In this document: one piece after another, positions 36,638 through 52,711 of the stretch
Layout of the letters: the number at the start of each line of letters is the position of its first letter
Numbering within the stretch: the stretch's first letter is position 1
NCBI GenBank assembly: GCA_963724325.1
Contig: CAVRUH010000001.1
Coordinates: 512,001 to 576,000 of the forward strand
Length of the DNA: 64,000 nt
Origin: Waddliaceae bacterium
GTDB taxonomy: Bacteria; Chlamydiota; Chlamydiia; Chlamydiales; Waddliaceae
Reading direction: 5' to 3'
Position numbers and translations under genes: made by a program
The notes under the pieces: generated by a model
Seen by the model: only the letters and a program-made list of their open reading frames with translations
What the model was told of the DNA's origin: nothing
Database searches by the model: none

Positions 36638-39600
36638 ATGCTGCCACAGATAAATCCAGATGCAAATAATTCCAACGTGTTTTTTGGAAGAGATCATTTG
36701 AAAATATTTCAAAATCGGTTGATGCCGTTTCTTGATGATGCATCTATTCTAAATCTTATTGTTTGTAGTAAAATAACATGTCATCACTTCTTTGCCGAAA
36801 AAGTTTTTCGATTCATTAAAACCATTAGAATAGGAGTTAAAAATGATCGGAAAAATCTAAGTGATACTATTGGAGTCATCCTTTTTAGAAGTGCAGAACT
36901 TGGAAACATTAGAATTATTACAAATTTAAGTGCCGAGAAGGTTAATTTTAATATATGCGAAAAGTCAAACTTAAATCTTCTACATTTTGCCGCTTGCAAT
37001 GGATATTTTGATATTGTTAAATTCTTGTGTGAAGAACATCCATATTTGTTAACAGCAAAAAATTCGAGCGGTTGGACTCCACTTAGTTTGGCAGCATCAA
37101 ACGGTTATGAAAAAGTAGTCGCTTATTTGGTAGAGAAGTACCCGGAAGCATTGCTTATAAGTGATAATACCGGAGACACTCCATTGCATTTAGCCATCTT
37201 AAGTAACAATCTAAATGTTGTTTCCCTTCTGATTGAAAAATACTCGGCAGAACAATTAATACAGGAAAATGAAAAAAATAGCATATTTAAATGCGCTATA
37301 TTAAAAGAAAATTATAATATGTGTGAGCTATTATGTTTTAAGTGTCCGGAATTGTTGAAAAAACAAGATGAGCGTGGCCTTACCCCAATCCTTTTTGCCA
37401 TTGAAAAGAAGAAAGAAATCGCGATCCTTCTCTGTGAACAATGTCCAGAAGCATTACAAATAAAAAATATCTATGGCTATACTCCTCTCCACTTTGCAGT
37501 ATATCGTGGGGATTTAACGCTCGTTATTTACCTGCATGATAGTTCACCGGAACAGTTACGAGTAAAAGATATAAGCGATGAAACTCCATTCGATATTGCT
37601 GTCAAACAAAAGCATTTTCATATCGTCTCTTACTTCGTTATGTATGCCAAAGGAGGTTCTTTAAATCTTCCTAAAGTAAGGGTGACTATCAATCCGTCGC
37701 AATTTAACGAATTATATAAAGAAGTAAATGAATCTGTAAAGGAGGTTCGGACCCTGCAATGGGATAATATTATCAAATTTAAAGAAAAACAAACTGTAAA
37801 AAACATAATTGCAGATAGTTTGGAAGCTGATTTCGATAAATCAAAAATGTTTTTAGTTTTATTTTATTCTAAAAATAAGGTGTTATTTTTTAATCAATTG
37901 TTTCTTTTCTTTTCAGAAATCAGAAAAGAAACTGACGAATTATTGGTCAAGGTTCTAAAAAAAAATGTGCTGATGAAGAAAGATGAAAAATCAATCCCTA
38001 GATCAGAAATTGAAACCCATCATATGATGCTTCTTGCAGGGTCTTCAGGATTTAACGAGGTTGTCAGATATCTATTCAAAGAGCGTAAAATAGATCCTTA
38101 TGAAAAAGTCTTGAAAGGTCAAAATGTTGTTCAATTGCTTATTAATAAAAATTCAGAAAAATTTTCTGAACAAGAAGTAGTTGAACTTATGGATATATTG
38201 GATGTCAAACTAGGGCATGCCAATGACATCTTTGGTGAAAAATACGATCCAAGATTGTGTAATAACAACAAATATCGATCCTTCCGCCGTTATATTTTTG
38301 TGAAAGCTGCTAAACACTTGAATAAAATATTTCAAAAGAAGCAATTGTATGATCACTGGATTTCAAAACAATGCATTTTCAATAATACCCTTTATTGCCT
38401 CGATTTTAAAGATGTCGAAATCGCAAAACTGTTTTTGATGAAACAATATCTCGAATCGAAAAAAATTGAATCCAAAATATGCCAAGAAAATGACTCTTCT
38501 ATACTTCGTATCTCGGATTTGTCTTCTTGCCAAAATATTATGGCATTGGAGCAAGAGCAATTCTCCAAAGATCACAGCTCGTTAAGTGAGCTTTGGTCAA
38601 TATTAACTAAATTCCCCAGTTTATTCTGCAGTCTTCATTGGCGATATATTGGAGAAAATCTCTGCATCGATTTACCTGGTGATATTGTCCCTGTACAGTT
38701 GATGTTCGCTCATATTGCAAGTCAAAAGAAATGTAAGATGCCCTTTGATATACGTGAAAGTAGTCTAACCTGCACCCCAGCATTGATCGATGATTTCATG
38801 CAAAGTGAAACCTATTTCATCTCACAAGATTTTGAACGATGGGAAAAATTGGTTAAAATAATTATTAAAGATAAAATCGTTGACGCGGATGCATTAGATA
38901 AAAAACTACAGTTTTTGGAAGGGGGGCGCATCAAAAAAGATAAAGCTGAAAGAGAGGAACGGGAGAAAGCGGATAAGCGTGTTGTTTTAAAAGCTAAGAA
39001 ACAACCTCCAAGCATTAGCAATAAATCAATGCCGGTGAAGAAAAAGGCTGCAGAGGCCCCTAAAAAGCCGACAAAACAGAAAAAAAACCAAACAGCTCCC
39101 ATACCCGCAAAATCAGAAACTATATACCTATCCATGCCATCTAGAGATGCGAGAGAAGCACCAGTCGTGGCAGTATCTTCAATTGATTACGGTCTAAAAG
39201 CGGAGCAAATAAATGCTCCTAAAAAAATAGAGGATTCCCGATCAAATCAAATCAATGCACCACTGGAGCTATTACTTTCTGAAAATCTTGCTAAAACGCA
39301 AGAAGTTCACGAATGCTTTAAGCGCCTGTTTGAATTATCAAGGCCAGAAATTGATTGTGATCCACTCATTGTGAACGGAGCTGCTCTTTTCAATAAAATG
39401 AGAGTCGATTTAGCTTGCGATACATTGTCTGTCGATTCTCCCATTCGCAATTTATGCTCTTATGGTCTAGATAAACACCCAAGAGATTCCTGGTCTCACG
39501 ATTACTTCCCAGATCCAGAAGCGCCCGTTTTTCCTCTGAAAACTGATGGTGCTATTTTTGAAACTCTCTCCCAAATGGAAAAAGGACAGTTTTCAGATGT

Positions 39601-51700: not shown

Positions 51701-52711
51701 CTCTCCCAAATGGGAAAAGGACTGTTTTCAGATGTCAAAATTTTTGACGCTGCAAAAAAGGAAATCATAGCCCTATTCTCCGATTGCGAATCCTATCGCA
51801 TATCCTGGAATGATGTTTTCATTGGAGCCTATCCCAATCCTGTCCCAGCTTTGACTGCAAAAATCGCAAAGTATTTATCCTCTTTAACCAGCCTAAAAGG
51901 GTTGCTCGATAAATATCCTGTCGGAGACATGCGACGTTCCTACGCCTTGGATGCAATCACCTTTTTTATCAGCCGTATCGGCGAATTGACAAAACATATT
52001 GAATTAGGCTCAAAGCCTTTTCAATCACTACGCAATGAAATTATTCACCAACTTGAGAATGTCGATCATGATCGTGAAACATTGCATGCCAAATGCCTCT
52101 CTTTACTAGATAGGCTAACAACATTTAAAATTCCTCAAGTCGTTTTAGAAGCAAAATGGGAGCCAAGCATCAATAAGAGCTTCTGCTACAATGCCAAATT
52201 GATCGCAAAGCTATTGCGCTGGCGCACTGCTGAGCTAAATAGTCCCAACAAGAAAATCATTGTCCTCGACCCAGTTAAATTATCGGACTTGCAAAAAGTT
52301 GTGGTAACAAACAAGGATGGCTCCATAACATTTATTCCTTTAATGCTCGGAAACCAAAAATATGCATGCTTAGTCCTTAATTTTGAAAATCAAAAAGCCA
52401 AAGTAGTGGATTATGTCACTATCAATGGAGCCACGGACGTAATATCCGAAGAAATCCAAGCTTTCACCAAACCCTTTGGCACAGTTAGAAAGGCTGCTAC
52501 GGAAGAAAAAAAGGAAACAACACCAGAAGACCACGGACCTCTTTTAGTCGAACGCCTACACCGTAAAGCCCAGGAAATTACCCAGGGAAAACAGGACAAA
52601 ATAGAATCAACTTTCCAAATGCGCAAGCGTCACCTTCACCTAGCATTTGCTGCCGGAAATGTGCAACTCTATCTAAAACAATTCCTGCTCAGAGGCATAC
52701 AAAAGCCCTAA
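48776..52711 (+). CDS. Ankyrin-repeat protein, copy 4 (9 aa shorter at the C-terminus)
   Basis: Paralog; ends GIQKP-stop, where similarity to the other copies ends. Confidence 0.85.
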   Translation: MNSHVNPNANVSNELFGPNLMKVLQNKLIPILDDQSILNLSLCSRIINEYTSSEKILRRVKRLGLEIRDNNNQGIDFGLCLLKCAELGNVIIIKKLNENKINFNVCNNNESNVLHIAACFGHFDLVKFLCEEHPYLLTEKNLNGWTPLFLAAAKGHEKIVVYLVDKYPEALQISDKAGDTPLHLAIINNHLNIVSILYEKYTSEQLLQNKSEFSLLQYPISLDNVNMCRILCSKFTKLLQQQDRNGFTPLHTAVLLKKKEFVTLLCDKYPEALQIKDSVGRTPLRIAAELGEEEIVTYLFDKRPEELTTKDVNGYTPFDLAVQKNNISLIVFLCVHSKGVLTDLSDEIVARLSSQKSEIDKELTLYTHRMRFLKWSNAIDFKNKEFIKIVLAKFVEVDDQGHFFSIVFSFENMVLLFNPVFALLSESRKETDELLVKVLKKMVIFKANGQSISRSEVETHHMMLLAGSSGFNEVVRYLFKERKIDPYEKVLKGQNVVQLLINKNSEKFPEREIVELMDILDVKLGHANDIFGEKYDPRLCNDNKYRSFRRYIFVKAAKHLNKIFQKKQLHDHWISKQCIFNNTLYCLDFKDVEIAKLFLMKQYLESKNIESKICQENDSSILRISDLSSCQNIMALEQEQFSKDYSSLSELWSILTKFPSLFCSLHWQYIGENLCIDLPGDIVPVQLMIAHIASQKKCKMPFDIRESSLTCTPALIDDFIQSETYFISQDFERWDKLVRIIIKDKIVDADALDKKLQLLEGERIEKEKAEREEREKAGKRVVLKAKKQPPSISNKSMPVKKKAAEAPKKPTKQKKNQTAPIPAKSETIYLSMPSRDAREAPVVAVSSIDYGQASEQAYYPKKIEDSRSNQTNTPLELLLSENLAKTQEVHECFKRLFELSRPEIDCDPLIVNGAALFNKMRVDLACDTLSADSPIRNLCSYGLDKHPRDSWSHDYFPDPEASVFPLKTDGAIFETLSQMGKGLFSDVKIFDAAKKEIIALFSDCESYRISWNDVFIGAYPNPVPALTAKIAKYLSSLTSLKGLLDKYPVGDMRRSYALDAITFFISRIGELTKHIELGSKPFQSLRNEIIHQLENVDHDRETLHAKCLSLLDRLTTFKIPQVVLEAKWEPSINKSFCYNAKLIAKLLRWRTAELNSPNKKIIVLDPVKLSDLQKVVVTNKDGSITFIPLMLGNQKYACLVLNFENQKAKVVDYVTINGATDVISEEIQAFTKPFGTVRKAATEEKKETTPEDHGPLLVERLHRKAQEITQGKQDKIESTFQMRKRHLHLAFAAGNVQLYLKQFLLRGIQKP

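Follow-up and report, generated by a model that had tools for sequence, protein, structure and literature searches.

Intracellular bacteria commonly inject ankyrin-repeat (ANK) proteins and CE-clan deubiquitinases or deSUMOylases. The bacterial CE-clan effector proteases include SseL/ElaD, OtDUB, RickCE, ChlaDUB1/2, SnCE1, XopD, and the deubiquitinase (DUB) domain of Wolbachia CidB. Legionella AnkD and AnkH, which combine ANK repeats with a cysteine-protease-like domain, are also among the closest known systems to the one we report. We analyzed a 64,000-nucleotide stretch of a Waddliaceae bacterium genome (assembly GCA_963724325.1, contig CAVRUH010000001.1, positions 512,001 to 576,000; "the window" hereafter, with positions counted from its first letter) that contains an array of four tandem paralogous genes encoding large ANK proteins. 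Unlike the CE-clan effectors, the array proteins have His in place of the catalytic Cys and Lys in place of the catalytic His (Arg, Asn, or Gln in relatives), and they lack a Pfam C48 match. Our best reading, which we hold with a little more belief than doubt, is that these are lineage-restricted, large modular proteins that are exported into a eukaryotic (amoebal) host and that join a recombining ANK head to a pseudo-Ulp1 tail.

The open reading frame (ORF) list and the translations give the following layout:

36638 to 40603, plus strand: copy 1 (P0001, 1321 aa)
40715 to 44677, plus strand: copy 2 (P0002, 1320 aa)
44726 to 48685, plus strand: copy 3 (P0003, 1319 aa)
48776 to 52711, plus strand: copy 4 (P0004, 1311 aa), with a TAA stop nine codons early

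An earlier note on this DNA had described four tandem paralogs of about 1320 aa between dnaB and pit, each with a variable ANK head and a near-constant tail. Both descriptions hold: the ORFs are 1311-1321 aa long and lie on the same strand, and identity between copies in 50-aa windows is 0.29-0.86 until about aa 450 and mostly 0.9-1.0 thereafter. Overall, the copies are 30-80% identical over the first ~430 aa and 94-97% identical over the remaining ~890 aa, with a basic linker (aa 751-900) whose window identity, at 0.76-0.98, is lower than that of the rest of the tail. Pfam finds only ankyrin repeats in all four copies, at approximately aa 80-330 (E<=1; Ank_2 scores 108-139 bits). A search of the organism's own genome (2.37 Mb in 11 contigs, 84.6% complete) with the constant part returned exactly four copies, all in the array, at 94-100% identity. 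The number of copies is that of the deposited assembly; Logan contigs give low-depth, fragmentary cover and none spans a repeat. The variable heads of copies 1 and 2 were found without differences in independent Logan contigs. A joint from 40789 to 52500 with 21-nt sides, seen in a single Logan contig, was set aside as a repeat artefact.

The array belongs to a very rare, lineage-restricted protein family. A word-indexed search of 5.8 billion proteins returned the window's own paralogs only. Exhaustive phmmer searching of 1.84 billion representatives yielded nine proteins at E<=0.001: one of the array's own copies, three full-length relatives (P0005-P0007, 31-39% identity), P0010 (627 aa, 25% identity), three fragments, and a 2760-aa protein that matches over a short stretch only. 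In P0010, the tail is present without ANK repeats. The relatives are cluster singletons from Logan or ENA, and fragmentary versions (131-519 aa) lie on one 8-kb ENA contig. No match scored in 199 other genomes of the order, the congener included. When the pattern of family alignment A3 was scanned, 78 genome-contig and 145 metagenome-contig stretches matched and none was confirmed. The family alignments used below are shallow, covering 6-8 lineages.

The best-supported module of the tail is at its C-terminus:

40034 to 40531, plus strand: predicted peptidase fold of the CE clan (Ulp1/SseL/OtDUB-like) that lacks the canonical Cys and His (copy 1 aa 1133-1298)
40394 to 40402, plus strand: D1253-H1254-G1255 of the conserved DHGPLL[VI]ER, from the family alignment and hhalign against C48

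The earlier note had read the tail as HEPN only and missed this fold, which was found by structural matches. An AlphaFold2 model of aa 860-1321 has a mean predicted local distance difference test score (pLDDT) of 80.9 and a predicted template-modelling score of 0.78. In a Foldseek search of the PDB with the tail model, nearly all of the matches listed were CE-clan proteases or related effector domains, with SseL at the top (E 3e-5) followed by OtDUB, the CidB DUB domain, XopD, Ulp1, and SENPs. Matches in a viral structure library were Ulp1-like proteases of phaeoviruses and giant viruses, and the protein-language Atlas gave ElaD/Peptidase_C48 at 0.88, which we treat as a lead only. The C-terminal alpha/beta domain of the model (aa 1133-1298) thus has a CE-clan fold. 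At the sequence level, the 891-aa tail had no match in the PDB at E<=10.

Comparison with true C48 peptidases locates the exchanged residues. Aligned by hhalign with 12 chlamydial C48 sequences, the domain scored a probability of 15.3%, with its core in the register expected from the fold. FIPLMLGNQKY pairs with F.P....NHW, which puts K1196 at the catalytic His position, and EDHGPLL pairs with.DCG..., which puts H1254 at the catalytic Cys position; E1248 falls at the position of the oxyanion Gln. Relatives have K, R, N, or Q at the His position and H at the Cys position, or Q in P0010. DHGPLL[VI]ER is invariant in five of five rows of A3, and it is among the most conserved motifs of the family together with W-x-P-x-[IV]-N at the entry to the domain, which we take to resemble the WLND..IN motif of Ulp1-type enzymes. 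In short, this is a CE-fold domain that is not a canonical thiol protease.

What might a CE-clan fold do without its nucleophile? CE-clan folds act on eukaryotic ubiquitin and ubiquitin-like (UBL) systems. Since the scaffold is specific to eukaryotic ubiquitin/UBL biology and the nucleophile is gone, we favor either a pseudo-enzyme that docks to ubiquitin or UBLs or a new chemistry based on DHGPLLVER. In the mechanism that we propose, an obligate intracellular chlamydia-like bacterium would export the array proteins into its amoebal host. The head, with a weak F-box-like motif and about seven ankyrin repeats, would be the variable target-binding part, and each ANK head would recruit a different host partner. 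The tail forms, in the model, a compact unit whose helical domains include a four-helix bundle with HepT-like motifs, packed onto the Ulp1/SseL-type CE-clan fold. With the nucleophile Cys changed to His and the general-base His to Lys, the CE-like domain would have lost thiol-protease function and could serve to dock to, or to read, host ubiquitin or UBL conjugates; alternatively, it might support new chemistry centred on DHGPLLVER. The bundle, if it is an active HEPN, would add RNA cleavage. The data show the architecture, the fold, the exchanged residues, and the pattern of conversion, whereas export, the host targets, and binding rather than catalysis are what we infer.

Several points weigh against the exported pseudo-Ulp1 reading. 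The AlphaFold2 model was built from an alignment of only eight rows, and PF02902 (Peptidase_C48) has no match at E<=10 in eight family members. The third catalytic position is ambiguous: D1213 aligns there and is not conserved in relatives, and N1218 is Asp in five relatives; an acidic or amide residue is possibly retained at one of the two. Because the canonical catalytic residues are absent, the fold gives no inference of enzymatic activity. Ubiquitin or UBL binding by the domain is something that we purely infer. Given the rarity of the family, statistics on conservation are thin, and the evidence for an F-box, described below, is sub-threshold in every test. Scanned with PF02902, the organism's own genome has no match, versus 16 of 100 genomes of the order.

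Two helical segments precede the CE-like domain, the second of which contains the motif that the earlier note had emphasized:

39263 to 39679, plus strand: helical domain (copy 1 aa 876-1014; AlphaFold2-model helices H15-156)
39680 to 40027, plus strand: four-helix bundle with HepT-like motifs, predicted (copy 1 aa 1015-1130)

The string ALDAITFFISRIGELTKHI...LRNEIIHQLENVD, which contains RNEIIH, is invariant across all four copies, and RNEIIH of copy 1 (R1087...H1092) lies at 39896-39913, as had been reported. The earlier note recognized in it the HepT/DUF86 HEPN pattern. On that reading, the tail would be a HEPN-family RNase that cuts RNA through its Rx4H site (R1087, H1092), gated or targeted by the ANK heads as a bacterial analogue of RNase L, with the CE-like domain as an accessory. 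We consider this explanation unlikely on balance. As in HepT/DUF86 (PF01934), the array tail has a predicted four-helix bundle in which D..IGE..K and RNxxxH occur in the same order on corresponding helices (model helices 165-188, 194-214, 222-235, and 242-256, which map onto the HepT helices, with RNEIIH on the third). An RNEIIH-type motif is kept in P0005, P0006, and P0010. Compared by hhalign with 14 aligned true HepT proteins of related genomes, the trimmed family alignment reached a probability of 37.7% (E 3.4e-4, score 26.85, 61 columns), in the register that the earlier note had proposed for D..IGE..K and RNxxxH. The controls score lower: 14.0 for the reversed alignment and a mean of 11.0 and maximum of 22.5 for 200 column shuffles, none of which (0/200) reached the score. 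Family windows without RNEIIH scored 10.6-18.3, and the two overlapping windows that contain it scored 24.8 and 26.5. The structurally confirmed CE domain itself reaches only 15.3% against true C48, which the bundle-versus-HepT score exceeds, and remote but true kinship could look like this with alignments so shallow. Reciprocally, a hidden Markov model (HMM) of the bundle ranks two of the five HepT-like frames of the genome among the 16 best non-self frames of 9,867 (hypergeometric P 2.5e-5); these matches have E-values of 2.2 and 4.5, individually insignificant, and rest on the RN..H motif itself.

Other results argue the other way. Pfam HEPN families have no match at E<=10 in eight members of the family, PADLOC finds ANK only and no HEPN in the array proteins, and the HepT-like loci detected by PF01934 in the same genome are all outside the array. 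When the genome's 9,871 frames are scored with a HepT HMM, those of the array come in at ranks 129-191 (E 56-92), and with the untrimmed family alignment the hhalign probability is only 0.78%. No HEPN entry is among the structural matches listed for the tail model. Conservation of RxxxxH in distant homologs, on which the earlier note had made its reading depend, is divided: R and H are both substituted in P0007 (YNEIGA) and P0008 (CKKIAP), two of six lineages, while the CE-like motifs persist there. Unlike HepT, the array bundle is below every family threshold, has a GE-to-RN spacing about nine residues shorter than in the HepT alignment, lacks the IPW element in this shorter loop, has no MntA-type antitoxin neighbor, and is embedded in a 1300-aa protein. 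A homodimer prediction for two copies of aa 1015-1130 scored 0.28 against a mark of 0.42, which weighs neither way, and an Atlas search with the bundle alone gave no usable match. The comparison with RNase L holds for the combination of ANK repeats with a possible HEPN and fails at the kinase. RNase L is an animal protein of ANK, pseudokinase, and KEN/HEPN domains; Pfam detects no kinase-like domain in the array proteins, and in the model of their middle part that place is taken by ANK-like repeats and alpha/beta units. Some 700 residues of other domains separate the ANK repeats from the putative HEPN, and nothing points to a ligand site of the 2-5A type. We put HEPN homology of the bundle at slightly less than an even chance and consider it doubtful that RNase activity is the main function.

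The two halves of the tail could also work together. In such a composite effector, an active HEPN-type RNase lobe would be positioned by a dead Ulp1-like ubiquitin/UBL reader, with the ANK heads choosing host partners. We think this distinctly unlikely. If true, it would be a secreted counterpart of RNase L logic in which host RNA is cut where ubiquitin or SUMO marks occur, for example on stalled ribosomes or in nuclear bodies, and in which the targeting end is diversified by recombination within a four-gene array.

The five HepT-like loci of this genome (PF01934; handle G000) are at C1:177235-177588, C1:220737-221021, C1:786367-786720, C7:373121-373411, and C10:16360-16695. Across the phylum, HepT-like genes were found in 29 of the 151 genomes sampled. 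Five loci are an unexpectedly rich toxin-antitoxin complement for a small obligate-intracellular genome.

Why is the tail so constant? The earlier note had spoken of a constant module; the near-identity is real, and the synonymous sites and mosaic breakpoints reveal a cause that had been missed. Nei-Gojobori estimates of nonsynonymous (dN) and synonymous (dS) divergence between copies, made per domain as the note had suggested, were as follows:

ANK part: dS 0.37-0.74, dN/dS 0.5-0.8
aa 431-760: dS 0.05-0.14, dN/dS 0.19-0.38
aa 876-1130: dS 0.006-0.03, dN/dS not informative because of few differences
aa 1131-end: dS 0.008-0.15, dN/dS 0.08-0.33 for most pairs

Since synonymous sites are also nearly identical in the tail, its constancy reflects recent homogenisation and not purifying selection alone. 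Either gene conversion or a duplication of the 3' part in the very recent past would have this effect. Along the gene, the closest pair of copies is 1 and 2 in aa 1-250 and 1 and 3 in aa 250-450 (as also in aa 431-760), and copies 2 and 4 are closest in aa 100-200 and at the C-terminus. With the closest pair switching in this way, the heads must be recombinant mosaics. Their average dN/dS lies below or near 1, and diversifying selection is possible. In our reading, duplication and gene conversion together drive the evolution of the array: conversion holds the 3' 2.6 kb near-identical, and the 5' 1.3 kb diverges and recombines.

Low tail dS also bears on whether these genes do anything at all. 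The array might be a recent redundant or decaying amplification without specific activity, perhaps inflated by the assembly of near-identical repeats. Very low tail dS is what recent homogenisation or duplication produces, copy 4 is shortened by nine codons, the array is absent from the congeneric genome, and the ENA contig with fragmentary versions fits decay as well. However, all four frames stay open over more than 1300 codons, tail dN/dS is below 1 in both of the intervals in which it is informative (for most pairs in aa 1131-end), the relatives at 25-39% identity retain the same tail motifs, and the heads of copies 1 and 2 are unchanged in the Logan contigs. We judge this explanation very unlikely, and less likely than the exported-effector reading.

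The head of each protein begins with a motif that might extend the likeness to known effectors:

36695 to 36823, plus strand: weak F-box-like motif (LMPFLDDASILNLIVCSK...; copy 1 aa 20-62), with sub-threshold profile evidence
36863 to 37657, plus strand: ankyrin repeats, variable region (copy 1 aa ~76-340; Pfam Ank_2 E 4e-35)
37898 to 38299, plus strand: further ankyrin-like helical repeats, where the near-constant part begins (copy 1 aa 421-554)

Residues 20-62 of copy 1 resemble the second half of an F-box. The F-box families of Pfam (PF00646, PF12937) have no matches at E<=10 in the N-termini of the four window copies; across the family, two of eight members have weak matches, and P0005, a relative, falls just short of the cut-off of 20.5 bits with a score of 18.5. 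With hhalign, the N-terminal motif aligned to 14 chlamydial F-box sequences at 16% probability (E 0.0016, 42 columns) in the expected register. PF12937 finds nine loci in the organism's own genome, none within the array. Direct reading of the translations revealed no hydrophobic, signal-peptide-like stretch at the N-termini of the copies. As in Legionella AnkB, which has an F-box and ANK repeats, a possible N-terminal F-box-like motif is followed by ANK repeats, and the AnkB ANK domain is among the weak VIA matches. The F-box/BTB expansions of Parachlamydiaceae offer a second parallel, with tandem arrays and birth-and-death evolution in amoeba symbionts (PMC4209131). Unlike AnkB and the F-box/BTB families, the array proteins carry an 890-aa tail that has no counterpart there, and the array copies, in contrast to the F-box/BTB genes, do not simply diverge but are homogenised by conversion.

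The genome around the array suggests a host-associated way of life. It encodes five TLC nucleotide transporters and one FHIPEP/SctV gene for a type III secretion system (T3SS) export gate, and F-box-like genes occur in all eight sampled genomes of this bacterial family, with nine loci here. Such gene content is what characterizes an environmental, amoeba-associated chlamydia. PMC4209131 describes expansions of ubiquitination-related (F-box/BTB) gene families in Parachlamydiaceae, with which the F-box richness here agrees. The idea of a host-directed effector, already raised in the earlier note, sits well with such an obligate intracellular genome, given its TLC transporters and T3SS export-gate gene.

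Alternatively, the array might work within the bacterium itself and not on the host, as a defence against phages or mobile elements with an ANK sensor and a HEPN or protease effector. Both kinds of domain, HEPN and ANK, are known from defence systems. In PADLOC, the models PDC-M72A and Ankyrin match the ANK region, and NCBIfam MzaA does so weakly. These PADLOC and NCBIfam matches are to ANK repeats only, however, and the 890-aa tail is unmatched in PADLOC. A CE-clan fold would point to eukaryotic ubiquitin/UBL systems instead, the copies have no partner genes among or next to them (dnaB, tRNA-Ser, pit, and phoU form the flanks), and the genome is that of an obligate intracellular bacterium rich in eukaryote-like domains. 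We give defence very little credence; like decay, it is a less likely reading than export.

Between head and CE-like domain lie two further modules:

38267 to 38803, plus strand: two alpha-beta-beta-alpha-beta-beta-alpha units, weakly LAGLIDADG-like, predicted (copy 1 aa 544-722)
38963 to 39262, plus strand: Lys/Pro-rich linker (KAKKQPPSISNKSMPVKKKAAEAPKKPTKQKKNQ), from the sequence (copy 1 aa 776-875)

Nearly all of the Foldseek matches listed for the middle domain are LAGLIDADG meganucleases, with weak scores; copies 2-4 have this domain in the corresponding region. WhiA is among the VIA matches, also with a weak score. The modelled domain may be a degenerate nucleic-acid-binding module within an effector. 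The linker resembles, by eye, a bipartite nuclear-localisation signal, and relatives P0005, P0006, and P0010 carry similar basic linkers. Its end (modelled aa 860-875) is of low confidence, with pLDDT <50 for model residues 1-16.

Upstream of the first two copies lies a shared promoter-like element:

36577 to 36605, plus strand: promoter-like TTGAAT-17-TATAAT upstream of copy 1, from a consensus scan and upstream alignment
40654 to 40682: the same promoter-like TTGAAT-17-TATAAT element upstream of copy 2, from the upstream alignment

Every copy keeps an identical 20-nt sequence before its ATG. Promoter and terminator consensus scans were overall not above shuffle expectation.

On its left, the array is flanked by an intein-containing dnaB (34646-36520) and a tRNA-Ser gene; on its right lie a PHO4/pit phosphate transporter gene (52719-53705, minus strand) and then a PhoU-like gene. 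The congener G096 shares only pit-phoU (window 52728-54346) and the dnaB side, where each adjoins unrelated genes (glycosyltransferases, aminotransferase). Because dnaB and pit-phoU are on separate contigs in G096, the array lies at a synteny breakpoint, with borders at 36521-36637 and 52712-52718. The site is a rearrangement breakpoint relative to G096, and the comparison does not show a simple insertion of the array.

Other genes near the array deserve mention in their own right. The dnaB gene has a mini-intein at approximately 35911-36329 (Pfam Intein_splicing, aa 439-561). In G096, the flanking dnaB sequence runs on without the ~420-nt intein segment, so that of these two species of the genus only one has the intein. 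An ABC-3 (Zn/Mn permease) gene at 33690-34709, after znuA and an ATPase gene, seems split over several frames: ORF 33690-34172 covers only profile positions 3-78 of 258, and ORFs 33946-34287 and 34263-34709 overlap. It could be a frameshifted pseudogene or the product of assembly indel errors. A ThyX ORF (28987-30624, minus strand) encodes 545 aa with two Thy1 stretches, the better at aa 326-511. This would fit a flavin-dependent thymidylate synthase that is duplicated or has an extended N-terminus.

The earlier note knew of no described system with an ANK-HEPN architecture, and our literature search likewise found none: in the available portions of work on ANK-HEPN effectors, CE-clan effectors in Chlamydia-like organisms, and HEPN combined with Ulp1 (including PMC11696984), the architecture is not described. 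The family is extremely rare in public data and would otherwise be easily overlooked. The array also illustrates concerted evolution in a compact, natural form: one half of a gene stays uniform while recombination shuffles the recognition half. Should the bundle be a functional HEPN, the array would, to judge from the literature searched, hold the first ANK-HEPN effector aimed at a eukaryotic host. Altogether, the array proteins are a variant of the ANK/CE-clan theme in which the protease nucleophile is replaced although no motif of the family is more conserved than the one at this site. A site that is exchanged but conserved may belong to a pseudo-enzyme that reads host ubiquitin-like marks, or it may carry out an unexplored chemistry on a Ulp1 scaffold.

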